64,000 nucleotides of DNA, taken from assembly GCA_963728565.1 (NCBI GenBank), contig CAVSLC010000021.1:1-64000 (forward strand), in the 5' to 3' direction. This document shows, piece by piece, positions 3,495 through 24,313 of this stretch. Each line of letters begins with the position of its first letter. Position 1 is the stretch's first letter. The notes under the pieces are model-generated. The model was given only the letters and a program-made list of their open reading frames with translations, searched no databases and was not told the DNA's origin. The DNA comes from an uncultured delta proteobacterium (lineage in GTDB: Bacteria > Desulfobacterota > Binatia > UBA9968). The position numbers and the translations under genes are program-made.

Positions 3495-4752
3495 TCGCGG
3501 ATCTAAGGACAGCGACAAAGCTGGTACCTTGCCGCTGCAAACGCAGACGGGGGTGCAGCCGGAGTCGAAACCTGGCGCAGCACCCCAAGGCATCGGCACT
3601 ATCGCCGTCCATGGCGGTGAGGCGAGGCCGAAGCTCGGCAATGCGCTGGCGACACCGATCGTGCAGACGGCCACGTACACCTTTGCAAATACCGATGAGC
3701 TTCGCGACCATTTTGAACGACGTATCGAGCGCCAGGAGTACGGCCGTTATGGCAACCCAACCCAACGTATCGCCGAGCAGAAGCTGGCGCAGCTCGAAGG
3801 GGCCGAGGATTGCTTGCTGTTTGCCAGCGGTATGGCCGCAATTACAACCACACTGTTTGCCGTTCTCTCGCACGGATCGCATGTGGTTGTCACAGACGAC
3901 TCTTATCGCCGGACTCGTCAGTTTCTCACCCAGGTGCTGCACCGTTATGGCATCGAAGTCTCGGTGGCTCGAGCCGGCGACTATGAGGCTATAGAAGGAG
4001 CGATCCGTCCGACCACGCGCGTGCTCGTAAGCGAATCGCCGACTAATCCGTACAACTACATTGTCGATCTCGAGCGCTTCGGTGAAATCGGCCGTCGTCA
4101 TCGGATCAAGACGATCATCGATGCGACGTTTGCCACGCCGTTTAACCAGCGGCCGCTCGAGTTCGGCATTGATCTGGTTTTGCATTCCGCGACCAAATAC
4201 TTGGGCGGCCATAACGATCTCCTCGCCGGCGCGGTGCTTGGATCTGCGGATCTGATTGACGGGATTCGCGGCTTGCAGGCGGTGACCGGAGCCATCGCAG
4301 ATCCATTTACCGCATACCTGCTTATTCGGGGGCTAAAAACATTTGCTCTGCGGATCGCGCAGCAGAATGCGACGGCGCAAGCTCTCGCCGAATTTCTCCA
4401 GTCGCACCCGCGGATTACTGCCGTTTATTATGCCGGCCTCCCGACGCACCCGCAGCACAACGTCGCGCGCCGCCAGATGCGCGGCTTCGGCGGCGTTGTC
4501 TCGTTTGAGGTTGCCGGCGACCTCGATGCGACGTCGCGCGTCGTCGATGCGTGCCGGATCCCGCAGATCGCGCCCTCGTTGGGCGGTGTGGAAAGTCTGA
4601 TCGAGCAGCCTGCGTTGATGAGCTTCTACGAGCTTACGACGGAAGAGCGCCTGCTCGTCGGCATCAAAGATAATCTGATCCGCTATTCGGTTGGCATCGA
4701 AGATACCGATGATCTTATCGCCGATTTGACCGCGGCCCTCGAATGCCCATGA
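3487..4752 (+). CDS. metB: Cystathionine gamma-synthase, plant-like (Cys/Met metabolism PLP enzyme)
   Basis: [57 protein letters not shown]; ATG at 3487 overlaps the thrC stop. Confidence 0.85.
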
Positions 4753-5945: not shown

Positions 5946-6506
5946 TTACCCGGGTGGGATTTTGTCAACTAGCTTGCCATTACTATAAAGCTCATAGCCT
6001 TTGAGGCTCAATTCGTATCCACGCGGCGGATGGTCGGAGAAGTCAATGACGGTTAGATCGAGCACCAGGACAGTTTCTCCGCGCGCTGCAATATCAAACG
6101 ACAGCTTGACCGGCCCGATGGTATTTTTCACGGGTGCGCTACGTTGGTTTTTCTTGAGGAGACCGTCCACCGATTTGATTTTCACATGGAATGCATCAAA
6201 TGCTCCGGCGTCGATGTCCGCTCGGAATATCTTGGCGCTTTCTTTGCCGACATATTTGGTCAGATCGAGAGAGGATTGAGAAGGACTAAATTCCTTCCAA
6301 CGGGTCTGCCAAAACCTTAGTCCCGGTTTGGGGCTGATGGCGACGCTGTCAATGGTGAGGAGCAACCGGGAAAAATCGTCGATGGCCTCGCGGTGATCCT
6401 TGATGCGGAGTTCGAATGCGCCTTGCTCCGGTTGACCAGCGACCCCGGGGGCGACCCAAAGCGCCAGCAGAAGAAGGGTATTAAGGAAGCGCGAGCATGT
6501 CGTCAT
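5946..6506 (-). CDS. Exported DUF4382-like protein
   Basis: Signal peptide (LLLLALWVAPGVAG); ELRIKDHREAIDDFSRLLLTIDSV and LDLTKY resemble DUF4382; ATGA overlap with upstream SCO stop. Confidence 0.6.
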   Translation of the reverse strand: MTTCSRFLNTLLLLALWVAPGVAGQPEQGAFELRIKDHREAIDDFSRLLLTIDSVAISPKPGLRFWQTRWKEFSPSQSSLDLTKYVGKESAKIFRADIDAGAFDAFHVKIKSVDGLLKKNQRSAPVKNTIGPVKLSFDIAARGETVLVLDLTVIDFSDHPPRGYELSLKGYELYSNGKLVDKIPPG

Positions 6507-7129
6507 TGCGGCCCAGCCTGACGTAGCCGCGCTAGATCCTTCAGGACTTCTTTCTCCAGCCATTTGTCACCGTAATAATCGACGCGGCGAATCCCTTTTC
6601 GATCGATGAGAGTGGTAAGGTTGGTGTGCTGAATTTGGCCGTTACCCAGATCTTTGACAGCCACGCCGAATTCTTTCCACACTTGGGCCAACGCCTCGCG
6701 AGTGCCGCTGAGAAAATGCCAGCGCTTAAAGTCCGCATGGAAAGCCTGTGCGTAGGCTTTCATCTTTGTCGGAGTGTCTCGCGCCGGATCGGTGGTGATG
6801 GTCAAAAGAAGGTAATCGTCACGATTGTCCTCCTCCAAGATTCGTTGCATGGATGCCAATTTTGCTGTGAACAGAGGACAAACATCAGGACACGTGGTGT
6901 AAACAAACGTGACCAAGACAAGTTTCCCGCTGGCAGGGGTGAAATTAAACGGCTTGTCGAATTGATCGATGAGGGCAAAGCTCGGCGCCGGTGTGCTCGA
7001 CTCCCTGCGGCCTATTTCGCCTTTTTTCGGTGGAATCGGAATGTGTGAAAAGACCAGTGTCGACGACAACAGGCCTACGCCGAAAAACACCGCGGCAATC
7101 CACAGGCTAATGCGCAACTTGAAAGTCAT
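6503..7129 (-). CDS. SCO1/SenC-family protein
   Basis: FVYTTCPDVCP (CxxxC), ITTDPARDT, QHTNLTTLID (conserved His); N-terminal anchor/signal. Confidence 0.92.
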   Translation of the reverse strand: MTFKLRISLWIAAVFFGVGLLSSTLVFSHIPIPPKKGEIGRRESSTPAPSFALIDQFDKPFNFTPASGKLVLVTFVYTTCPDVCPLFTAKLASMQRILEEDNRDDYLLLTITTDPARDTPTKMKAYAQAFHADFKRWHFLSGTREALAQVWKEFGVAVKDLGNGQIQHTNLTTLIDRKGIRRVDYYGDKWLEKEVLKDLARLRQAGPQ

Positions 7130-8012
7130 AGGTGACATTTAGCTCTTTTATTCCTTCGGGAAGGTCGCCGCGCACCATGTAAGTGGTCGAGAACTCCGAC
7201 TCCTCCCCGGGGCGTAGTTCGACCGGAAGCAGCAAGGCACAATCGATGATATCCAGATAGTCGCTGAGCTCGTCGGGCTCAATGCGATGAGTGATCCGAG
7301 TCGAGATCGTCTGCGCCGTTCGATTCTTGACTCGGTAGGCGATGGTGAAAGGTTCGCTCGGGCGGATTGTCGTGGCTTTATTGACGGGGACTGCTTCGAT
7401 GGATTGTGTCAAAGGCACTACCGCGTCATAACTCACCCTGATTCCGGCAGCCCAATCGAGATGAACCCGCCAGCTCGTGCCTTCCTTCACCAACGTAAAT
7501 TCTTCCTCGCCCTCAATTGTTTTAATTTCACCGGCGCGATTCATCTGATCGAGCGTGGCTAGAATGTCGCGCTGCATGGATGATGGCAAAGCATTCAGCC
7601 GCTCTTCGTCCCAATCCAGCAGGATGGCCGAAAAGCTATTCGCGTCGGGGTATTTAGCTTCAACTTTGACCCGCATTTGGCCGTTCTGTTCTCTTACGGT
7701 TTCCAGCGGGCGCAGTTCGATGAATTGCGCTAGCTTGCGTGTCACGGCAAGCGGAAAACCGCTGAAGGATCCTTTTTCGCGAACATATACGCGCTCGGCC
7801 TTGAGCTGCCGATCGCCCAGGGATATGTACCGATAGGCTTTCTTGAAATCGCGCGCGTAAGAATTCTTGACATAAGCCTCGACGGTGTTGAACGGCTCTG
7901 TCTGGACGTTGTGCTGCGGCGAGCTGCTCCTACTGTAGAGAAAAGCGGCCGGCAGAATCAGTATGAACGCCGCCGCCACACCTAAAAACCAACTTGTCGT
8001 TCGTGAGTTCAT
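7107..8012 (-). CDS. NTF2-like + Cox11/CtaG-like fusion protein (paralog A), single-Cys motif
   Basis: C-terminal IRVSYDA...IRPSEPFTIAYRVKN...THRIEP...DYLDIIDCALL...LRPGEESEF...DLPEGIKELNVTYDF follows the Cox11 pattern; N-terminal YVKNSYARDFKKAYRYIS. Confidence 0.7.
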   Translation of the reverse strand: MNSRTTSWFLGVAAAFILILPAAFLYSRSSSPQHNVQTEPFNTVEAYVKNSYARDFKKAYRYISLGDRQLKAERVYVREKGSFSGFPLAVTRKLAQFIELRPLETVREQNGQMRVKVEAKYPDANSFSAILLDWDEERLNALPSSMQRDILATLDQMNRAGEIKTIEGEEEFTLVKEGTSWRVHLDWAAGIRVSYDAVVPLTQSIEAVPVNKATTIRPSEPFTIAYRVKNRTAQTISTRITHRIEPDELSDYLDIIDCALLLPVELRPGEESEFSTTYMVRGDLPEGIKELNVTYDFQVAH

Positions 8013-8091
8013 CCGATATTTCTTGTTGTATCAAGGCCTACATTCGTCGATTCTGCGCTGAGAGTCCGCGGGTTCGTTATCGGGCAGTGAG

Positions 8092-8991
8092 CTAGTTACT
8101 GCTCAAAGTGACCGCATAGGTAACGTTTAGCTGGCGCACTCCCTCGGGAAGGTTTTTTCTGAGAAGATAAGTGCTGACGAATTCTTCTTCTTTTCCAGGC
8201 GCTAATCGCACTGGCAAAAGAAAACCACACTCGACAAGGTCGAGATAATCGCGAACTCCATAAGGATCGACTAAGTGGCCTATGCGAGCGAAAAGCTGCT
8301 CCTGACTGGTATTTTTAATGTTGAGCACGACTTTGAAGATTTCACCCGGTCGGGTTACCACAGCCGAATGCGCGAGACGCGCTTCGACTGGAACTGAACT
8401 CGGAATCGAGGTTTGAAAGCCGACGTTCACCGGCGATATCCAATTCAGAACAATCTTCCAGGCAGCGCCCTCTTTGGCTATTTCGAAAACATCCTCTCCT
8501 TGAATCATCTCGATCGCATGACTTCGACGCAACTTGTCAATACCGGCCAGCAGCGTTTTGCGCTCGCTGTCTGGTAACGCTTCCAGCTGGTCGATATCCC
8601 AATTGTGCAGCAGCGGACCTAGCTTTCCCGCGTCCGGCACTGCGAACTTAATTTTTATTGTCGCTTGTCCGTCGACGATCCGGGTCTCGACAGGCTTCAG
8701 CTCTATATAGCTCGCAAGTAGTCTGGCGATCTCTAGTGTGAATCCGGTAAACCCGCCCCGGTCTCTGACATAGCTGGCGCGATCTTTTAGGCGTTGGTCG
8801 GGAGTGGCGATGTGGGAGTAAGCTTCCTCATAGTCTCTGGCGTAGGTTGCCCGAACATAGCGGTCCAACGTGCGGACCGCGTCCTGTTGATCGGCAGCAA
8901 CGGCGGAGCGCATATCGGGGCTAGATAGCGCCAAGAGCGCGATTACAAACAAAGCCGAACAGGAGCTTCGAGTCGATAAATCTCTTTTCAT
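8092..8991 (-). CDS. NTF2-like + Cox11/CtaG-like fusion protein (paralog B)
   Basis: YVRATYARDYEEAYSHI; TRPGEIFKVVLNIKN...GHLVDP...DYLDLVECGFLLPVRLAPGKEEEF...LNVTY; signal peptide. Confidence 0.7.
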   Translation of the reverse strand: MKRDLSTRSSCSALFVIALLALSSPDMRSAVAADQQDAVRTLDRYVRATYARDYEEAYSHIATPDQRLKDRASYVRDRGGFTGFTLEIARLLASYIELKPVETRIVDGQATIKIKFAVPDAGKLGPLLHNWDIDQLEALPDSERKTLLAGIDKLRRSHAIEMIQGEDVFEIAKEGAAWKIVLNWISPVNVGFQTSIPSSVPVEARLAHSAVVTRPGEIFKVVLNIKNTSQEQLFARIGHLVDPYGVRDYLDLVECGFLLPVRLAPGKEEEFVSTYLLRKNLPEGVRQLNVTYAVTLSSN

Positions 8992-9047
8992 GCAACGCCA
9001 AATCCGAGGTAGCCGTACAACAAGTTGTCACCACAACTTGTGTTTGG

Positions 9048-9629
9048 TTAAGGCGCTTTGGCTGGAATCGTCCAAAGATAAATCGTCCGACCGTTGACTC
9101 GCTCGGTCTTATCGGGTTTCCAATCCCCCATATCGAACGCATGAGAGACCACCCGGGAACCAGGTTTAAGCTGTTTTAGGAGATTCGGTTTGAGCTTCAA
9201 ATTAACATCCGGCAAAAGGTACATCGTTACCACTGTGGCCGGCGAGAGATCTACAGTTAGGATGTCCTGTTGTTTAATCTCAGCCAATTTTTCCAAACCT
9301 GCTTTGCGAATGTTCTCCCGTGACTCTTTGACGAGGTCGCCGTCGACCTCGAATCCTACCGCCCGGGCGTCCTTCCTGGCGGCGGTGATGACGATTCTGC
9401 CGTCACCGGACCCAAGATCGTAGACCACGTCGCCTTTCTTTACTCCGCCAAGCTCAATCATCTTGTCGACGACTTCTTGTGGCGTGGGCACAAACGGTAC
9501 GATTTTCTTAGATTCAAGATCCTGGGCCTGGGCAGTGCCAGCGAAGATTTCGAAACGTCCATACTGAAACGATGAGAGGGCAAACACAACCAGAATTGCA
9601 GCCAGTGAAAGACGATGTTGCGGTTTCAT
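9048..9629 (-). CDS. Exported aKMT/FAM173-like SAM methyltransferase (paralog of 1160-1738)
   Basis: Signal peptide ending AQA; VPFVPTPQEVV, VYDLGSGDGRI, VVTMYLLPDVNLKLKP, RVVSHAF; SD GGAGG. Confidence 0.88.
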   Translation of the reverse strand: MKPQHRLSLAAILVVFALSSFQYGRFEIFAGTAQAQDLESKKIVPFVPTPQEVVDKMIELGGVKKGDVVYDLGSGDGRIVITAARKDARAVGFEVDGDLVKESRENIRKAGLEKLAEIKQQDILTVDLSPATVVTMYLLPDVNLKLKPNLLKQLKPGSRVVSHAFDMGDWKPDKTERVNGRTIYLWTIPAKAP

Positions 9630-9716
9630 TTTCTAGCCTCCCTTTTTGGCAATCAACGGTGTCCGAATCAATTAACCATAAAAAAAATCTAGTCGCCACT
9701 ATCTAGCTAATGCAGA

Positions 9717-10340
9717 TCAAGGAGGGCTCGGGCTCAATGCCCGCATATCTTTCAAAAAATCGCTGAACTGCCATTGCGGACCCAAGAAACTGATTCTGCG
9801 GGTGCCATGGGCATCACTCAAGGTCGTTAAATTCGTGTGTTGCACCAGCCCACGGCCTCTCCGGATCACTTGAACACCGAAACCTTTCCAGACATCTTTC
9901 AGGCGTGACTCATCGCCGGTTAAGAATGCCCAGTTGTGAAAATCGGCGCCGAACCGTTGTGCATACGCCTTCAATACTTTCGGCGAATCAATTTCCGGGT
10001 CGGTGGTAATGCTCACAAGAAAAGAATTCAGTTGAGTTTGGGTGCGAAGCGCTTGTTGCAGCCGGGCAAATTCCACCGTGAATAGCGGGCAAACGTCGGA
10101 GCAGGTGGTATAAATGAAATTCACCGCGACGATTTTGCCGCGCAGTTTGATGTCAGCGTCAAATGGATTACCTTCTTGATCTATCAACGTGAAAGAAGGC
10201 ATCTTCGCGTTCGAGGTAACTCGACGCGACGCTTCTGTTTTCGTCTTGATAGGTTCATGGGCTGTGACGGTGCTCGCAACCGCGCCGGTAGTGAAGACGA
10301 GTAGCGTTATCAGGCAGCTATTTGCTAACTTCAAACGCAT
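9717..10340 (-). CDS. SCO1/SenC-family protein
   Basis: FIYTTCSDVCP, ITTDPEIDS, QHTNLTTL; ATG at 10340 overlaps the upstream gene by 23 nt. Confidence 0.9.
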   Translation of the reverse strand: MRLKLANSCLITLLVFTTGAVASTVTAHEPIKTKTEASRRVTSNAKMPSFTLIDQEGNPFDADIKLRGKIVAVNFIYTTCSDVCPLFTVEFARLQQALRTQTQLNSFLVSITTDPEIDSPKVLKAYAQRFGADFHNWAFLTGDESRLKDVWKGFGVQVIRRGRGLVQHTNLTTLSDAHGTRRISFLGPQWQFSDFLKDMRALSPSPP

Positions 10341-11262
10341 AGGTGAGCGCCAAGTCTCGGAAGTTCTTCCTAACCGATTTTTCCAGCAGATAAGCCATCG
10401 AGAACTCTTGCTGAGTTCCCGCTTCGAGCACAAGGCGTTGCCCGAGGCCGCAGTCGATCATCTCGAGATAGTCGGCGGCCTCCGTCGGTTCGATCAAGTG
10501 GCGCATGGCCAGAACCACTCTGTGCCTGCCGCGATTATTAATCTTCAAATTGACCTGAAAAGGCTCTTCCCCTCGGGTGATAATTTCATGCTGTAAAAGT
10601 TTGATCTCAACGTCTGATCTTTCGGCCAAGACCGTATGCGCCTTGACCTTCGTTCCGCCGGCCCAGTCGTTAAAGATTTTCCAGGCATTTCCCTCTCGAA
10701 TGAGCTCGAATGTTTCATGTCCCTGAATCCTCGGCAGATTGCCGCTTCGCATTCGCGCAGCCAGCGCATCAAGCAAGAGGGTCTGCTCCCCGGTCGAAAG
10801 TGAATTCAGCTTTTCTGAATTCCAGTCCCATACCAGCGCCGAAACATCTTCGGAAGCTGGTACAGAGTACTCGACTTTGATTATTGACCGATTGCTCTCG
10901 GTGGATTCGTCAATGAGATGCAAGTCCATGAAATCAGCGAGTTTACCGGCTAACCGAGCTGTAAAGCCGGTTAACTCTTCTTGCCCTTGAACATAACTAT
11001 CTTCAGCGCGAACTCTCTGGTCCGCTGCTGAGATATAGCGATAAGCGGCTCGGTAATCGCGCGCGTAAGTCGCCTTTAGATAGGATCGGATTACCGCTAG
11101 CGGGTCGTTCGCTTCGGTTTGTTGACGGCCTCGGTCTTGTAAGTGAACTGTAATTAAAGCCGTCGGAGCAAACAGGATCAATACGAGAAGTGTCCTGCGC
11201 AGTACAGTAAGAACCGTAGGAAAGTAACGCAAAATCTGTCTTGCGTGCAATTTTGATCTCAT
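10318..11262 (-). CDS. NTF2-like + Cox11/CtaG-like fusion protein (paralog C)
   Basis: YLKATYARDYRAAYRYIS; EPFQVNLKINN...RHLIEP...DYLEMIDCGL...LEAGTQQEF...LTYAF. Confidence 0.7.
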   Translation of the reverse strand: MRSKLHARQILRYFPTVLTVLRRTLLVLILFAPTALITVHLQDRGRQQTEANDPLAVIRSYLKATYARDYRAAYRYISAADQRVRAEDSYVQGQEELTGFTARLAGKLADFMDLHLIDESTESNRSIIKVEYSVPASEDVSALVWDWNSEKLNSLSTGEQTLLLDALAARMRSGNLPRIQGHETFELIREGNAWKIFNDWAGGTKVKAHTVLAERSDVEIKLLQHEIITRGEEPFQVNLKINNRGRHRVVLAMRHLIEPTEAADYLEMIDCGLGQRLVLEAGTQQEFSMAYLLEKSVRKNFRDLALTYAFEVSK

Positions 11263-11271
11263 CCGGAAAGC

Positions 11272-11712
11272 CTATTTGACCATAAAGGTGACTTGATCAA
11301 TGGCGTCCATCTCGCTTTTATGGTCCTCTGCAACGACGCGTAGTTCCAAAATGTATTTCCCGGGCTTAATCCCGGTGAGGGTCCCTGTTTGGCTGTTGAA
11401 CATTCCCATCAATTCGCCATTCACATAAGCATGCACATGGTGGCCCCGTTTTCCTTTGACTAGTTTAAACTCCAGGGGAATTTGGTCTTTGCTAAAAATC
11501 TGGTCTTTTGTCGGGGATATTATTTTCACGCTGGCGCCATCGGCCGGCAATAGCTTGCCGCCTTGGCTGGCTCTGTCCGACCGGTTTGTCCGCCCGTCTT
11601 GATGCTGGTGACCCGACTCGGCCGCGACGGAATCATCACCAAAAAAAGGATTTGCCATAATGGTGGCGCCGGCAATTAGCGCTCTTAACGTACGGTCAAT
11701 TGATTTTGGCAT
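11272..11712 (-). CDS. Exported His-rich Ig-like beta protein, putative metal chaperone
   Basis: Signal peptide, GHQHQ after cleavage, SVKIISP...GHHVHAYVNG...PGKYILELRVVAEDH; SD GAGGAG. Confidence 0.65.
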   Translation of the reverse strand: MPKSIDRTLRALIAGATIMANPFFGDDSVAAESGHQHQDGRTNRSDRASQGGKLLPADGASVKIISPTKDQIFSKDQIPLEFKLVKGKRGHHVHAYVNGELMGMFNSQTGTLTGIKPGKYILELRVVAEDHKSEMDAIDQVTFMVK

Positions 11713-11787
11713 TCATATCTCCTCAGGCTCACCACTCCCCAACCCGGACAACCGCTTCCAGCTGGAGCAGCCGGTGCTCATAAAGAA

Positions 11788-12348
11788 TCACCTTCGTATA
11801 CCGGCATTCATGAGCGCTGTCGATAAGCGTTCCGGCGTGAGTGGGCCGATGATGATGTCGCGGATGATGCCTTGACGGTCAATAAAAAAGGTTGCTGGCG
11901 GACCAAAGATCCGATAGGCCCGCTTCACCGTGCTATTCAAGTCAAGCGCAATAGGAAGAGTAAGTTTAAACTCTTTAGCATATTCTGTCACTGCGGCACG
12001 ACTGTCTTCGACGGCAATCCCAAGGACGCTGTAACCTTTGTTCCCCGATTGAGCCGCGAGTTCGTTGATAAGCGGCATTTCTTCCCGGCATGGATCGCAC
12101 CAGCTAGCAAAGAAATTAATCACCAATGGCTTGCCACGGAGGTTTGTCAGGCTGATTGGTTTGCCATCGAGCGTTTTGAGTTCAAACGGAGTCGCCGCCG
12201 CGCCAATCTGCGGCGCAGCGTTTTGCCTTGGAGGATGAGAGTGCTGTGCTTGCACGGTAGCGCAGGGAGACCCAAAGGCAAGAACGCAGCCCAATAAAAA
12301 TGCACCACGGCCAAGTATCGTAACAATAGTGGATTCCATTTTTTTCAT
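11788..12348 (-). CDS. TlpA/ResA-family thiol-disulfide oxidoreductase
   Basis: INFFASWCDPCREEMP, cis-Pro loop GPPATFFIDRQG; signal peptide followed by QHSH. Confidence 0.92.
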   Translation of the reverse strand: MKKMESTIVTILGRGAFLLGCVLAFGSPCATVQAQHSHPPRQNAAPQIGAAATPFELKTLDGKPISLTNLRGKPLVINFFASWCDPCREEMPLINELAAQSGNKGYSVLGIAVEDSRAAVTEYAKEFKLTLPIALDLNSTVKRAYRIFGPPATFFIDRQGIIRDIIIGPLTPERLSTALMNAGIRR

Positions 12349-13715
12349 TTGGCTACCGTCGCGCTTCGAAGCGCCGCTCGGGAGTTCTCGCCGTCGGTTT
12401 CCGTCCAGGCAACGTGCAGCCGATCTTTAAAAAGCGCCAGGACAGGACGGCTGGCGTTGCCTTCGGCGTTACTCACCTGCTGGATAGGTCCCCAAGAACG
12501 GCCATCAGGTGATAAAGTGCGAAGAAAAATCTGCGCTCTGTTGTTGCCGTCGAGATTACTCCACGCCAGGTAGACTGTGTCGTCGTTGCCCAGTATTAAA
12601 GTTGAGTAGAGAATTTCCGGAGCCGTGTTTGCGTGCACTAGTTGCCGTGCTTGAAAGCCCTTACCGCCATCAGTAGAAACGCTGTAATAAATTCCTGCCT
12701 CGCGTTCGGTCCGACCGAGCGTGAACCATGTCACGTGCAGCCACCCGCGAGAGTCTCCTCCGATGCTCGGACCGGAGTGGGGGCAGGAGGGAACTTGCCA
12801 GCCATCATCGCTGATCACTACAGGCGCGGCGAATGTTTTGCCGCCATCTATGGACTTACGCAACACATGGTTGCGAATCTGATGATCGTCTACTTGCCGA
12901 TCGACTAGGTAAACTGTCCTGCCCCCGTCCGCAAAAGCAACACCGAGCTTGCAACATTCGCACAGTCCTTTGCCCACCGAGTAATTCCTCGTGAGATCGT
13001 TTCCATTGGAATCGAGCTTCATAAGATACAGCTGGCGTGGATTAGGATTATCTATGCGACGATCGATCCAGGCCAGCAATACGCTACCATCCGGCGATAC
13101 TTCGATGATCGGAAAACGCGCGGCATCTCTAACTTCATTGAGGGTTCGCGCCGGGCTGAAGCCGCCCTTTTCGTCTTCCATTGCGAAGCGGATGTTGGCG
13201 CGAGTTTTGTCGCCTTTCCCACCGGAGGTGGACCACGCGACATAAGCTTTGTTGTTCATCCCGAACGCGACTTTAGGGCCGTTCTCTCCTTCTTGGATGG
13301 CCTCCGCCGAGCGGTTCACCTGTTTGACCCAAGACCAAGTCTTGCCGCCGTCGCTCGACGCCGCCAAAAACGCGTTACGCATCGGCGACGGCGCCATCTT
13401 GCCGGACGGATGGGGTTGATGCGCGGCGGACTGAGTTTTCTCAGAACTCGAGCCGTGGTCAGCTTCGATCCAGATGGCGAACAATCGGCCATCCGGACTA
13501 TAGCGGAGAAATGGGGTCGAAGGGTTGTTGTCGCTTTGTCCCAGGCGTTGCTCCGGGCCAAAGGCTAGATTTACCGTGCGCCGGGAAGCGCCGGGCGTGG
13601 TGTTATGACCGCTGCAAGCCGTTAAAAATAGACACAGCGACAGTGCAATAGTAAGTGGTCGCGCCTGGAATGTCGCATAAGCGATCCGAGGCGGAAAATC
13701 GTTTTTCTTGTTCAT
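12345..13715 (-). CDS. BNR/Asp-box (sialidase-like) beta-propeller lipoprotein with CECC and CPH motifs
   Basis: Lipobox LTAC; Asp-boxes SSDGGKTW, SIDGGKTF, STDGGKGF; GLCECCKL and PSCPHSGP; start reassigned to MNKKNDF at 13715. Confidence 0.85.
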   Translation of the reverse strand: MNKKNDFPPRIAYATFQARPLTIALSLCLFLTACSGHNTTPGASRRTVNLAFGPEQRLGQSDNNPSTPFLRYSPDGRLFAIWIEADHGSSSEKTQSAAHQPHPSGKMAPSPMRNAFLAASSDGGKTWSWVKQVNRSAEAIQEGENGPKVAFGMNNKAYVAWSTSGGKGDKTRANIRFAMEDEKGGFSPARTLNEVRDAARFPIIEVSPDGSVLLAWIDRRIDNPNPRQLYLMKLDSNGNDLTRNYSVGKGLCECCKLGVAFADGGRTVYLVDRQVDDHQIRNHVLRKSIDGGKTFAAPVVISDDGWQVPSCPHSGPSIGGDSRGWLHVTWFTLGRTEREAGIYYSVSTDGGKGFQARQLVHANTAPEILYSTLILGNDDTVYLAWSNLDGNNRAQIFLRTLSPDGRSWGPIQQVSNAEGNASRPVLALFKDRLHVAWTETDGENSRAALRSATVAK

Positions 13716-13827
13716 AGAACCGCCCTCATAAAGACGTAGCTCCGCGGTTCCGGCGCAATGCCGGGAATTTGCGAGCTGTTGTTGCCGCGGTGAAAAACTC
13801 CGGCATTCTGCCGAGAGATAGCTAAGT

Positions 13828-14238
13828 CTAGGCTCGCGGAGGCGCTCGCTGGGAGGACAGAGAACGGCTGACCTGGTAGGGCGCTGAAACCGGAGAATCA
13901 GGCTGGGCTTTAATCTCAGGCCCGTGATAGGCAATTTCTACCGGCTGATAAAAGAATAAATGCGAATTCTGCGCAACCGTTTGCGCGACGCAGTCGGAGT
14001 TGGTGGAGCTTTGGCCGCGATCTGAATTTGCCGGGCCGCTGTGATGATCGTGCCCGTGTTCATGACCCTCGCTAGCAGCTGCAACTGGCGCCGTTTCATG
14101 ATTGCCGCCCTGCGATGGTGGTAGATTCTCAAAGAGGTGATGAACCCGATGCGGTGCCGAAGAGGCGAGCAGTAGAAAAAAGAAGCTGACTACGGCCAGA
14201 GTTAGACTCCGGCTTGGATTAACGATTCTCTTTCTCAC
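13828..14238 (-). CDS. DUF2946/CruR-like His-rich leader protein ending in RAPP (putative ribosome-arrest peptide)
   Basis: N-terminal TM/signal, HRVHH, GHEHGHDHH, single Cys (DCVAQ), Pro/Ser-rich linker, C-terminal QRAPPRA-stop. Confidence 0.75.
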   Translation of the reverse strand: MRKRIVNPSRSLTLAVVSFFFLLLASSAPHRVHHLFENLPPSQGGNHETAPVAAASEGHEHGHDHHSGPANSDRGQSSTNSDCVAQTVAQNSHLFFYQPVEIAYHGPEIKAQPDSPVSAPYQVSRSLSSQRAPPRA

Positions 14239-14470
14239 AGCCTCAGACCATTTATCAGTGTTCGGTGTTACGGCAATGTCGAGCGACCCGTATCATTATT
14301 CAGGTTTGGGCATGGAAGATCAATGAGGCTCGGCGAAAGCACAACGAAAGCCGCGCGTTAGATGAGCCCCGCCGCGCAAACGCTGGGTGATACCAGCCAG
14401 CCCACGCTGATGAGAGATGATGGAGGAAAGCTAACATCGCGCGTTATCCTCGATAAAGCGTACTTCTGAA

Positions 14471-21618: not shown

Positions 21619-21645
21619 GTAGCAACAATTGGAAGAACGTGTTAC
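21619..21645. promoter_or_regulatory. Candidate NikR operator upstream of MFS-TBDR operon
   Basis: GTAGCAA-N13-GTGTTAC imperfect dyad in the 61-nt nikR-MFS gap. Confidence 0.6.
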
Positions 21646-22085: not shown

Positions 22086-22115
22086 TTCGTAACACGTATG
22101 AGAATTTGATGTCAA
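22086..22115 (-). promoter_or_regulatory. nikR promoter overlapped by candidate NikR operator (probably leaderless mRNA)
   Basis: Minus strand TTGACA-N18-TACGAA with extended -10 TG, 7 nt before ATG and no SD; plus strand GTAACAC-N13-ATGTCAA. Confidence 0.55.
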
Positions 22116-22334: not shown

Positions 22335-23480
22335 GTGCAAGAGAGTTTTCAGATTGAGCTGGAAAACCGGCTTCGCGAGAAACGCCAGGCCCTGGCTCTT
22401 TCTCAAAAGCAGTTAGCGGACTTGGCCGGGATCACCAGGCAAGCCGTTTCCGCTTTGGAGTCGAATCATTATTCGCCCGCCACGTCGGTTGCACTGCAGC
22501 TCGCTCGAGCGCTCCGATGTCGCGTTGAAGATCTGTTCAGCATCAAGCAAGACGGGGAAATCGTTGAAGGAGAACTGCTCGGCGTTCTTCCGCCGGTTGA
22601 TACCCCCATGCGCGCTCAGGTTTCCGAAATCGGCCAGCGCGTGCTGGTGCGCCCGCTTCATGGGCTCGGAGAGCTAGCCAGCCTAAGCGCCATAGCGGAC
22701 GGCCTTATCGTTGAGACGAAGCCGGATAAGGGCCGGGTAAAGGTCAAACTACTGAAAAACCGCGAAGCCGTACGCAAGAAAATCATCGTGGGCGGATGCG
22801 ATCCCGCTATGTTTTTAGCCGGCGAGCACGTCAGAAGGCACGATCAGGAAAACTTAATGCCCTGTCTGATGGGCAGCAGTATCGCGCTCAACGCGCTCAG
22901 GCGCGGCGAAGTTCACGTCGCGGGCATCCATTTGGCCGAGGAGGGCACGGACGGCTGGAAGCTTCCCAACTTGAAGGAAAGTCTCGGCGATATGGACTTT
23001 ATTGTGGTTACCTTCGCCTATTGGGAAGAAGGTTTCATTGTCTCTCAGGGCAATCCCAAAAAGATCCGGACCATCATCGATATTGCCAAACCTACCGTCA
23101 AGATAGTCAACCGCGAATTCGGTTCGGGTGCCCGCCGTCTGCTCGACAAGCAATTGCTGGCCAGTGGGATTAAACCCAACGCTGTCAGAGGTTACGAAGA
23201 AGAAGCCTTATCACACCTGGACCTGGCATCTCGGATCAAGGCGGGCTTTGTGGATACCGGTATTGGCGTGCGCGCCGCCGCGTCCATTGCCGGGCTCGAT
23301 TTCGTGCCGCTGCAGCGCGAACGCTATGATTTAATCATCCCCAAACAATATTACGAGTCGCTTAGCGGTTTGCAGGTGCTGCTCGATACGATGGTCAGCA
23401 AGACGTTCCGCGATGAGGTCGAAGCACTTGGTGGTTACGACACCCGGGACATGGGACGGCTGGTGGAGACACCGACATAA
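22335..23480 (+). CDS. XRE-HTH + PBP-like (molybdate-binding) transcriptional regulator
   Basis: LSQKQLADLAGITRQAVSALES HTH; GCDPA, NREFGSGARRLLD, LDFVPLQRERYDL, LGGYD; lies upstream of modA. Confidence 0.88.
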   Translation: MQESFQIELENRLREKRQALALSQKQLADLAGITRQAVSALESNHYSPATSVALQLARALRCRVEDLFSIKQDGEIVEGELLGVLPPVDTPMRAQVSEIGQRVLVRPLHGLGELASLSAIADGLIVETKPDKGRVKVKLLKNREAVRKKIIVGGCDPAMFLAGEHVRRHDQENLMPCLMGSSIALNALRRGEVHVAGIHLAEEGTDGWKLPNLKESLGDMDFIVVTFAYWEEGFIVSQGNPKKIRTIIDIAKPTVKIVNREFGSGARRLLDKQLLASGIKPNAVRGYEEEALSHLDLASRIKAGFVDTGIGVRAAASIAGLDFVPLQRERYDLIIPKQYYESLSGLQVLLDTMVSKTFRDEVEALGGYDTRDMGRLVETPT

Positions 23481-23533
23481 CTGCGCTCGCAAATGGCGAA
23501 CGCCATTCCAGACGACAAGGGGGAATCTTAAGA

Positions 23534-24313
23534 ATGTCGCTGTTCAATCGGAGTATGCGCAAATCGCTTTCAGTGGCCGCATTGTTCGTTTTGTTGGGTT
23601 GCAGCCGAACCGATGCCGGGGCAGACGAAATTCTAGTTTCGGCGGCGGCAAGTCTGACCGATGTTCTAAAGGAAATCAGCACCGGCTATCAAAAAAAATC
23701 CAAGCACACGGTGAGATTCAATTTCGGCCCGTCCAACGGTCTGGCCCGACAAATCGAAGAAGGCGCGCCGGTGGATTTATTTTTTTCCGCCGATTTGCCG
23801 CAAATGGACAATCTGGATAAGAACGCTCGACTCGAATCGGGGACGCGGAAAAACCTGCTTTCTAATCAATTGGTCATCATCGTGCCGGTGGATTCCAAGC
23901 TGACCATTTCTTCGCCGAAGGATTTATTGAAGGCCGATGTCAAAAAAATCGCGCTCGCCGAGACGTCCTCTGTGCCGGTCGGCGTCTACAGCAGTAAATA
24001 CTTGACCGATGAAGGTCTTTGGGACCAAGTCAAGCCGAGGGTGGTTCCTGTGCAGGATGTGCGGGCAACCTTGGCATCGGTCGAATCCGGTAACGTCGAA
24101 GCTGGTTTCGTGTACAAAACCGACGCCGCCGTCTCCAAAAAAGTCAGAATCGTTTACGAACTGCCCATCGAAAAAGGCCCCAAGATCCTTTACCCGGCCG
24201 CCATTGTTAAAGGATCAAAACGGAAGGACGCCGCGCGTGAATTCATGAACTACCTCCAGAGCCCCGCCGCAAAAGACACTTTCAAGAAATACGGCTTTGT
24301 CGTGCTCGATTGA
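23534..24313 (+). CDS. modA: Molybdate ABC transporter substrate-binding protein
   Basis: VSAAASL, FGPSNGLARQIEEGAP.D.FFSA, VPVGVY, DVRATL, VYKTDA. Confidence 0.95.
   Translation: MSLFNRSMRKSLSVAALFVLLGCSRTDAGADEILVSAAASLTDVLKEISTGYQKKSKHTVRFNFGPSNGLARQIEEGAPVDLFFSADLPQMDNLDKNARLESGTRKNLLSNQLVIIVPVDSKLTISSPKDLLKADVKKIALAETSSVPVGVYSSKYLTDEGLWDQVKPRVVPVQDVRATLASVESGNVEAGFVYKTDAAVSKKVRIVYELPIEKGPKILYPAAIVKGSKRKDAAREFMNYLQSPAAKDTFKKYGFVVLD

Follow-up and report, generated by a model that had tools for sequence, protein, structure and literature searches.

To our knowledge, metal sensing by nascent chains of DUF2946 (PF11162) leaders is a recent finding with only two studied examples. The CruR protein (Bp2923) of Bordetella pertussis, of 145 residues, carries the pair C90xxC93 followed by the arrest motif R139APP142, and more than 2000 DUF2946 proteins keep the distance of 45 residues from CxxC to RAPP, give or take 1-2 residues (PMC9426467). 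CutF of Rhodobacter capsulatus belongs to a 'CutF-like' superfamily of 29 sequence clusters (PMC9973294). Copper acts on the two systems in opposite directions, i.e., it relieves the CruR stall and induces the CutF stall (bioRxiv 10.1101/2025.02.05.636593). In this work we analyzed a candidate leader of this kind in the DNA of an uncultured delta proteobacterium (Desulfobacterota; Binatia; UBA9968). The window is the whole stretch of 64,000 nucleotides (nt) that was analyzed, positions 1 to 64,000 of contig CAVSLC010000021.1 (assembly GCA_963728565.1), and the leader is an open reading frame (ORF) of 136 amino acids (aa) that runs from 14238 to 13828 on the minus strand, with a GTG start and a TAG stop at 13830-13828. 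We propose that this ORF probably encodes a DUF2946-like nascent-chain metal sensor, in which a stall at a C-terminal RAPP motif would control an operon for a Cys-rich beta-propeller and for TlpA-like, Cox11-like and SCO1 proteins.

The RAPP motif and its variant RGPP support arrest with many upstream sequences and are depleted from proteomes (PMC12992588). Both are concentrated close to the C-terminal ends of small secreted proteins encoded upstream of TonB, YcnI, PCuAC, PepSY and thioredoxin genes, and CruR itself arrests in the PURE system with two Pro codons in the P- and A-sites (PMC12992588).

Motifs and fixed geometry of the leader

The leader starts with the basic stretch MRKRIVNPSR, which precedes a hydrophobic segment (residues ~12-27, 14158..14205) that may serve as a signal-anchor or as a signal peptide; the Pro right behind the SSA residues argues against cleavage there. 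The segment is followed by PHRVHH (residues 29-34, 14137..14154), which is proposed to bind the metal where the membrane helix ends on the periplasmic side, by the His-rich stretch GHEHGHDHH (residues 58-66, 14041..14067) within a variable linker, and by the core D-C-x2-Q-x2-A-Q-x-S-H (residues 82-93, 13960..13995), which includes DCVAQ (residues 82-86) with the codons of C83 at 13992-13990 and of Q86 at 13983-13981. The putative arrest motif RAPP (R131-P134 of 136, 13848-13837) stands within the C-terminal QRAPPRA-stop. All of these elements lie on the minus strand. The initial annotation of this DNA had listed a signal or transmembrane segment, HRVHH, GHEHGHDHH, DCVAQ and QRAPPRA-stop, each of which is found in the sequence, and its RAPP coordinates, 13837-13848, match exactly. 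An AlphaFold2 model of the leader had a mean predicted local distance difference test (pLDDT) value of 67 and a predicted template modelling (pTM) score of 0.27, with helices only at residues 9-26 (pLDDT 82-93) and, as a short one, at 84-90. By sequence and by AlphaFold2, the N-terminus is basic and carries a hydrophobic helix at 9-26. On this model the leader looks regulatory rather than folded.

The leader is a real, conserved gene. Of 58 candidates from a word-indexed search, 26 were homologues at E<=0.01, all of them unnamed metagenome proteins, and a profile built from 20 members and run against 1.84 billion representative sequences gave 188 matches at E<=1e-3, 110 at E<=1e-10 and 27 at E<=1e-30. 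It was present in 8 of 41 related genomes, namely its own and 7/24 others of the same family, and was matched in 0/16 genomes from two other families of the order. An unpublished genome is among those compared, and the results that follow are independent of it. Its 20 loci on genome contigs were titled Candidatus Binatia (8) or as 'delta proteobacterium'/Deltaproteobacteria metagenome-assembled genomes (MAGs; 8), and the remaining ones, with one record each, as Thermodesulfobacteriota, Limnocylindrales, Syntrophobacteraceae and Verrucomicrobiia.

The PHxVHH-bearing ORFs from the window and from 100 fetched loci gave 88 distinct complete ORFs, and RAPP was kept in 85 of these; one of the other three carried RGPP (L088), and two were apparently truncated or frameshifted. 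The expectation that RAPP be conserved in orthologs, which the initial annotation had made a test of its reading, was therefore borne out. Exactly two residues separated RAPP from the stop in 83 of the 85 RAPP-bearing ORFs. Since the homologues spell RAPP with every synonymous codon of Arg (six), Ala (four) and Pro (four), the constraint acts on the peptide and not on the RNA. At 30-40% identity three blocks were kept: SAPHRVHHLFE behind the helix, D-C-x2-Q-x2-A-Q-x-[S/C/A]-H, and PSPFSQRAPP-x-x-stop. In an alignment of 20 leader sequences chosen without a motif criterion (set A2), residues P29, H30, V32, H33 and H34 were invariant (20/20), and PHxVHH was found in 153 of the 171 leader proteins collected.

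The 130 of these 171 proteins that carry both PHxVHH and RAPP were the basis for the analysis of the Cys, the spacing and the linker. A Cys lay 46-48 residues ahead of RAPP in 130/130 proteins, so that C83 is invariant, and the gap from this Cys to the Arg of RAPP was mostly 47 residues (116 proteins), less often 48 (13 proteins) and in a single protein 46. The linker between the HH residues and the Cys, on the other hand, varied from 8 to 126 residues (median 41), and the His-rich stretch of the GHEHGHDHH type was not universal across the family. An uncharged stretch of at least 12 residues adjoined the PH motif within 0-1 residues in 120/130 relatives. The third residue past the invariant Cys was Q in 84 proteins, L in 24, F in 8 and another residue in 14, and it was never C (0/130). 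The leader had initially been described as having a broken CxxC, a description that is not supported: C-x2-Q/L/F is the usual form, and with Cys at the third position in 0/130 proteins it must be taken as a fixed state of the family, and not as a lesion or a read error. The ninth residue past the Cys was S in 49 proteins, C in 39 and A in 30, so that the second Cys, where present, stands nine residues past the first (39/130), and the tenth residue was H in 96/130.

A single RAPP near a C-terminus may be a product of chance: when all six frames of the genome to which the window belongs were scanned, 5 of the 27,162 ORFs of at least 50 aa had RAPP in their last 10 residues, and most of these five were clearly spurious. 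For this reason the case for an arrest leader rests on conservation. The same count, together with the poor Shine-Dalgarno (SD) spacing of the leader, could speak for a functionless ORF that arose by chance or is an artefact of annotation, but the 188 profile matches, the motifs kept at 30-40% identity with turnover of synonymous codons, the conserved synteny, and the contigs of close relatives that span the leader in 3/3 metatranscriptome runs (which tell of presence only) leave this explanation a negligible probability, and it was rejected on the conservation of the leader. These contigs came from three libraries of three studies, covered the leader and the spacer behind it (~13735 to 14260) and were 90-97% alike to the window. 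Among the contig differences listed, beside which there are 30 further ones, none fell in the codons of RAPP, C83 or Q86, and at 13835 a C>T difference replaces R135 by Q, the residue that relatives have. The contigs show presence in RNA libraries only, where DNA carry-over is possible, and neither transcript ends nor levels can be read from them. The gap of 232 nt ahead of the leader holds a promoter-like site, TTGATC-17-AATAAT (14295..14323, minus strand), which is weak (1 found vs 0.6 expected).

As a separate observation, the locus L041 (CAVYDL010000009.1) holds three leader paralogues within 6.5 kb, at 1031-1399, 3968-4381 and 6930-7535. They are 122, 137 and 201 aa long, and each has PHRVHH and a C-terminal RAPP.

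Relation to the described arrest leaders

The initial annotation had compared the leader with CruR and CutF and had stressed its C-terminal RAPP. This comparison is supported by the conservation of RAPP-xx-stop, by the fixed distance from Cys to RAPP and by the recurrence of PF11162 among the relatives. The leader itself had no Pfam match at default thresholds, and an NCBIfam scan gave nothing meaningful for it. At relaxed thresholds its residues 14-134 aligned with positions 3-117 of the 117 of the PF11162 profile (13.9 bits, E 0.098), and in a scan of its own genome with PF11162 it scored 13.1 bits. The profile matched 17 of 118 leader relatives at E<=0.01, with a best value of 1.8e-5, and no other family recurred comparably. 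Across the phylum the PF11162 cut-off was passed in only 2/201 genomes, and a search seeded with the locus L020 gave 2 proteins. In L020, by a hand count, 45 residues lie from CxxC to RAPP, and the motif PALHRAHC stands behind the helix; judged from sequence, this arrangement suggests how the CxxC and CxxQ forms are related. The leader has 44 residues between Q86 and R131.

The likeness to CruR extends to several features. Both are small proteins predicted to be poorly structured, CruR exported and the leader probably so, both have RAPP 2-3 residues from the stop and belong to a metal-homeostasis operon, the first Cys stands 48 residues before R139 in CruR and 47 residues before the Arg in the leader, and a long spacer leads to the regulated gene, of 162 nt in CruR and 112 nt in the leader (PMC9426467). 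The two differ in the sensor, since CruR has CxxC whereas the leader combines C-x2-Q with a His-rich linker and with PHRVHH, which is invariant. They also differ in the target, which is a TonB-dependent transporter for CruR, whereas the leader precedes a Cys-rich BNR-like lipoprotein, and in the spacer, in that CruR combines Cu-relieved stalling with Rho-dependent termination whereas the spacer of the leader has no C-richness like that of a Rho utilization (rut) site.

With CutF the leader would share Sec export as a nascent-chain sensor and a metal motif ~45 residues ahead of a C-terminal Pro-rich stall site (PMC9973294). CutF, however, has CxxxC and a PPP stall that needs EF-P, whereas the leader has RAPP, which is reported to be EF-P-resistant (PMC12992588). 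The spacers of CutF-like leaders are mostly shorter than 100 nt (PMC9973294), compared with 91-229 nt in the leader clade, and the CutF model places a stem-loop at the downstream ribosome-binding site (PMC9973294; bioRxiv 10.1101/2025.02.05.636593). CutF itself could not be found in cells as a protein, although downstream expression needs its translation in cis. The leader, with its predicted localisation signal and its near-C-terminal RAPP, also fits the class of small RAPP/RGPP proteins, which are followed, without a change of strand, by a metal or redox gene (PMC12992588). We take the leader clade as a branch separate from CruR and CutF, found mostly in Binatia-type MAGs, which would act like DUF2946 proteins.

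ApdA and ApdP have the identical four-residue arrest core and an N-terminal export signal, which is predicted for the leader too (PMC10951233). This likeness is what speaks for a monitor of Sec/YidC capacity of the SecM or ApdA/ApdP type, without sensing of a small ligand. ApdA, ApdP and SecM, however, are Sec/YidC monitors that lie upstream of secDF, yidC and secA, while the leader has metal-ligand motifs and metal-related genes downstream. A gene of the Sec/YidC pathway (Sec, YidC or SecDF) was found downstream of the leader in 0/85 loci, and a secretion monitor leaves the invariant His and Cys motifs at fixed geometry unexplained, so that we regard it as very improbable.

A second leader was found in the same genome, on another contig (C12:16914-17210, minus strand, equal to L131:4415-4711). 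It is 98 aa long and consists of a helix, LPLHVHF, KECSC and RGPPASLSA-stop, with 44 residues from CSC to RGPP, and a spacer of ~98 nt with a GC-rich hairpin follows it. Behind it lie genes for an outer-membrane-like protein (no Pfam match), a second ZnuA-like binding protein, an ATP-binding cassette (ABC) ATPase and a permease. In an alignment of 16 sequences (its own and 15 homologues) LPLHxH, KEC-x-C and R-[G/A]-P-P were invariant, there were no indels, and RGPP (12/16) and RAPP (4/16) were interchangeable. As far as its motifs tell, the second leader has the same design as the 136-aa leader.

Downstream genes, spacer and rival readings

The gene adjoining the leader (12345..13715, minus strand, ATG at 13715-13713) encodes a BNR-like lipoprotein of 456 aa with a sialidase-like beta-propeller. 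Pfam BNR_2 matched it at E 3.3e-7, below the cut-off, and by sequence it had 0 matches in the PDB. Its AlphaFold2 model (pLDDT 77.6, pTM 0.79) found only generic sialidase-type propellers with Foldseek, at template modelling (TM) scores of 0.43-0.59, and in the ESM Atlas it fell among BNR-like clusters that are commonest in Candidatus Binatota. Residues C252, C254 and C255 (GLCECCKL), C311 and H313 (SCPHSGPS), H283, H327 and M112 were invariant in 11/11 orthologues. This Cys/His cluster on the propeller looks like a metal centre, and the lipoprotein may be an undescribed periplasmic one.

Behind it, again on the minus strand, lie genes for a TlpA-like thioredoxin (11788-12348, by Pfam), an exported His-rich protein of 146 aa (His146; 11272-11712) with no Pfam match and the motif GHHVHAYVNGE, a Cox11-like-domain protein (10318-11262, by Pfam) and SCO1/SenC (9717-10433, by Pfam). 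The region 9717..12348 is likely the remainder of the regulated unit. This gene order downstream of the leader is retained in related loci, and the leader lies upstream of, and on the same strand as, metal-homeostasis genes, as is the case for DUF2946 genes. When the neighbours were compared in 85 loci, the gene directly downstream of the leader was BNR-like in 51, His146 in 6 and Cox11-like in 4, none was recognised in 6, and fewer than 500 nt were left in 18; in other words, the BNR-like gene came next in 51 of the 67 loci with at least 500 nt downstream. The gene directly upstream was His146 in 41 loci, an ABC permease in 14, TlpA in 11, TonB in 5, and none in 14. Because the downstream gene is mostly the same and the upstream gene varies, the leader travels with the downstream gene.

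The surrounding DNA also carries, on the minus strand, three paralogous proteins of ~300 aa with a C-terminal Cox11-like domain (7107-8012, 8092-8991 and 10318-11262), two SCO1/SenC genes (6503-7138 and 9717-10433) and a gene for an exported protein of 193 aa (9048-9629). The region 6503-11262 is thus an expanded Cu-chaperone-like gene set, which is kept in related MAGs.

The spacer between the leader stop and the ATG of the BNR-like gene (13827-13716, minus strand) is 112 nt long. It contains the hairpin CGGCA-GAA-TGCCG (13813-13801), followed by TTTTT (U5, 13797-13793), the hairpin CCGGC-ATTGC-GCCGG (13764-13750), CCGCGG twice (13790-13785 and 13747-13742), and the SD sequence GAGG of the BNR-like gene (13727-13724). 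The length and every hairpin element that had been annotated initially are present in the sequence. The annotation had also called the spacer structured, a view that is weakly supported: a long spacer was always present (91-229 nt in all 35 loci with a placeable start), whereas its sequence was not conserved across clades and no test for a specific fold was significant. A 161-nt stretch folded at -55.5 kcal/mol (z = -1.81; 7/200 dinucleotide shuffles were as stable). Compared with mononucleotide shuffles, the spacers of 11/11 genome loci were the more stable, z ranging from -0.3 to -5.8, with -1.57 for the window. The terminator-like hairpin in the window (13814-13793) is one of two such sites found in 1 kb, with 1.2 expected. 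Across loci, a hairpin with a U-rich tail behind the leader reached dG <= -8 in 56/81, and the mean best value was -10.4 vs -6.6 kcal/mol in mononucleotide shuffles. This excess is suggestive, although the tail, rich in U, comes immediately before the SD and may have another meaning there. Parts of the BNR gene and of the ABC permease have no contig cover in the RNA runs, and attenuation cannot be read from the contigs. A read-out through unmasking of the SD, as in CutF, or through control of termination, as in CruR, is possible.

Several points weigh against the proposal of a DUF2946-like switch. The 13.9 bits of the leader are below the PF11162 gathering cut-off of 23.7 bits, the CxxC that defines DUF2946 is absent from the leader clade, and an hhalign comparison of the leader alignment (A3) with a 4-sequence CxxC/RAPP alignment (A5) covered only 16 columns, at a probability of 86.9%. 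The set of 130 proteins was picked by both motifs, so that the invariance of these motifs within it is circular, the position of the Cys and the spacing being unaffected. The leader start stands in the context GAGG-CT-GTG, and this short SD-to-start spacing makes the start and the translation level uncertain. Turning to the spacer, when the footprint of a stalled ribosome was imposed on 11 loci, the accessibility of the SD went up clearly in 3, down in 5 and changed little in 3; pairing between SD and footprint was 0.27-0.57 in 7/11 loci and ~0 in 4/11, including the window. The duplex of the stop codon and 18 nt with the 34 nt before the start gave a median z of -0.64, with z < -2 in 0/35 loci, and in the window the stop-proximal/SD-proximal duplex was not significant (z = -1.62, p about 0.055). 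The consensus fold that RNAalifold gave for 17 related spacers had an uninformative energy of -2.05 kcal/mol. A helix drawn by hand between nt +4 to +13 past the stop and 10 nt at the SD showed covariation in the 17 spacers no better than in shuffles (115/500 reached its value); 87.6% of its cells were paired vs 27-54% when it was slid, a weak sign given that it was drawn from one of the same sequences. The spacers also had no rut-like skew of C over G (C/G ratio 0.77-1.40). Finally, stalling, metal binding and regulation are predictions for the leader clade, drawn from sequence and analogy.

Because of the Pfam score below the cut-off and the weak profile-profile test, the leader is not filed as a DUF2946 member but is called a DUF2946-like remote relative, which very probably works in the same way as DUF2946 proteins. 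As judged by its sequence, it agrees with DUF2946 in the spacing rule and in the position of RAPP, and it departs from the family in CxxC and in the Pfam score.

The lack of support for a downstream RNA switch in the tests of SD masking, duplex, consensus fold and hand-drawn helix would also agree with a stable, membrane-anchored or periplasmic His/Cys metallochaperone or metal buffer in which RAPP serves another purpose. The His-rich low-complexity stretches, the invariant His and Cys residues, and the neighbouring genes for metal transport and chaperone-like proteins would fit such a protein too. AlphaFold2, however, predicts almost no fold for the leader (pTM 0.27), and ordinary proteins are depleted of RAPP, a ribosome staller (PMC12992588). 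Moreover, a Cys held 46-48 residues from the C-terminus, in a chain whose remainder varies by more than 100 residues, would be of no use to a chaperone, and neither would exactly two residues past RAPP. We therefore consider a metallochaperone improbable.

The nature of the downstream genes bears on a further explanation, in which the RAPP leader would sense the periplasmic thiol-redox state: a mixed disulfide between its single Cys and an oxidoreductase would alter the stall and so tune the TlpA-like protein and SCO1. The single invariant Cys, the thiol-disulfide proteins related to TlpA and SCO1 encoded downstream, and the RAPP/RGPP uORFs (upstream ORFs) reported ahead of DsbA and thioredoxin genes (PMC12992588) agree with it, and the CutF model invokes the formation of a disulfide against the binding of Cu (bioRxiv 10.1101/2025.02.05.636593). 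Metal coordination is nevertheless suggested by PHRVHH, which is invariant, and by the His that 96/130 proteins have ten residues past the Cys, and the adjoining downstream gene encodes a Cys-rich propeller, not a thioredoxin. A redox sensor thus has a small probability in our assessment, and metal sensing by the nascent chain is the reading that we pursue below.

Candidate metals and a model of the proposed switch

The initial annotation had suggested that Ni or Zn is sensed. As the metal to be sensed, Cu and Ni appeared roughly even, and Zn or Co less likely. The TlpA-, Cox11- and SCO1-like genes downstream of the leader point to Cu, as does the fact that the characterised relatives CruR and CutF sense Cu. 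The His-rich ligands of the leader, the presence of nikR in the cluster and the NikR-box-like sites described below point to Ni, as do the His-only CutF-like clusters beside HupE/UreJ (PMC9973294). The high-affinity Ni site of NikR consists of three His and one Cys, the same set of ligands as is proposed for the leader.

We also looked for NikR boxes. In delta-proteobacteria the box is GTGTTAC-N13/14-GTAACAC, in either orientation (PMC545781). The best match in the window, with 2 mismatches and in reversed orientation, lies at 21619-21645 in the 61-nt gap between nikR and a gene of the major facilitator superfamily, and one with 3 mismatches, also reversed, lies at 22089-22115 in the nikR promoter region. 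The window holds 4 such matches vs 4-16 in shuffles, which is not above expectation, so that it is their location alone that deserves note. For the heptamer GTAACAC, the window has 9 occurrences vs 2.8 expected, and three of the 9 fall into the gaps beside nikR and ahead of the leader. The site ahead of the leader is a NikR half-site only (14265-14271), and GTAACAC upstream of the leader was found in 3/85 other loci, i.e., it is not conserved. A NikR box of the Escherichia coli type had 10 matches vs 14.3 expected. Beside the nikR cluster, on the plus strand and divergent from nikR (22335-24313), lie genes for a putative regulator with a helix-turn-helix and a periplasmic-binding domain and then for a ModA-like molybdate-binding protein; because of these two genes, the region collects several metal-uptake systems.

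A further idea is that the leader has a sensor chemistry distinct among the nascent-chain metal sensors. A transient site of 3 His and 1 Cys, formed solely on the chain in translocation at the mouth of SecY, would bring PHRVHH together with a Cys that arrives just as the ribosome comes to RAPP, and it would sense Ni(II) or another borderline metal, not Cu(I). It would follow that the leader, together with the second leader, forms a two-leader translational layer beneath NikR in a conserved Binatia metal-acquisition cluster. We offer this idea as a tentative and rather doubtful extension.

The model that we propose for the leader runs as follows. The N-terminal helix would engage the Sec translocon, which would place PHRVHH at the periplasmic face. 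Translation would then reach RAPP, two codons before the stop, and stall there, by a mechanism that has been shown for ApdA, ApdP and CruR; the position of the stall is assumed by analogy with the structures of ApdA and ApdP (PMC10951233) and the toeprint of CruR (PMC12992588). With P133 in the P-site, C83 would be 50 residues from the peptidyl-transferase centre and would emerge at the periplasmic mouth of SecY beside PHRVHH, since 50 residues span the exit tunnel and the membrane; the authors of the CutF work count ~45 residues as ~30 in the tunnel and ~17 for the passage of the membrane (PMC9973294). PHRVHH and C83 are joined by the variable His-rich linker, which would loop out. A metal that bridges His30, His33, His34 and Cys83, perhaps with His93, would alter the pulling force or the folding and, with it, the lifetime of the stall, which could be read out through the long spacer as exposure of the downstream SD or as control of transcription termination. 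The read-out would set the expression of the Cys-rich beta-propeller lipoprotein and of the genes behind it. A bridging metal would account for the fixed distance from Cys to RAPP, for the His motif that abuts the helix and for the freely variable linker.

The class to which such a leader would belong, that of DUF2946/CutF-like leaders and of RAPP uORFs upstream of metal genes, is already known, and the idea of sensing metals other than Cu is also in print (PMC9973294). The CutF-like clusters carry Cys, His or mixed motifs, and the His-only clusters lie beside HupE/UreJ and were suggested to sense Ni or Co (PMC9973294). What appears to be new is the sensor module, PHRVHH with a single Cys and never CxxC, and the distance from Cys to RAPP, which is kept within one residue although CxxC is lost; the phylum and the regulated target appear to be new as well. 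In contrast with the RAPP/RGPP survey, whose main text has no mention of BNR, sialidase or Binat* (PMC12992588), the leader is tied to a BNR-like gene. BNR and sialidase are likewise not in the main text of the CutF-like study, whose supplementary logos of the 29 clusters could hold a matching cluster (PMC9973294).

The cluster around the leader is a conserved one, from a soil phylum of which little is known, and comprises NikR, a TonB-dependent receptor, an ABC transporter, the leader, the propeller, TlpA, Cox11-like proteins and SCO1, and within it the uncharacterised Cys-rich beta-propeller lipoprotein is marked as the main regulated target. We know of no account of the way in which a metal bound beyond the ribosome acts on the stall within. 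The leader clade is a naturally occurring variant with one Cys and a His triad that abuts the helix in place of CxxC, and it yields a simple model that can be tested, a metal bridge between two motifs that would meet only at the translocon exit. The distance from Cys to RAPP is held within one residue in the absence of CxxC, which argues that the geometry relative to the ribosome and the translocon, and not the chemistry of CxxC, is the conserved principle.

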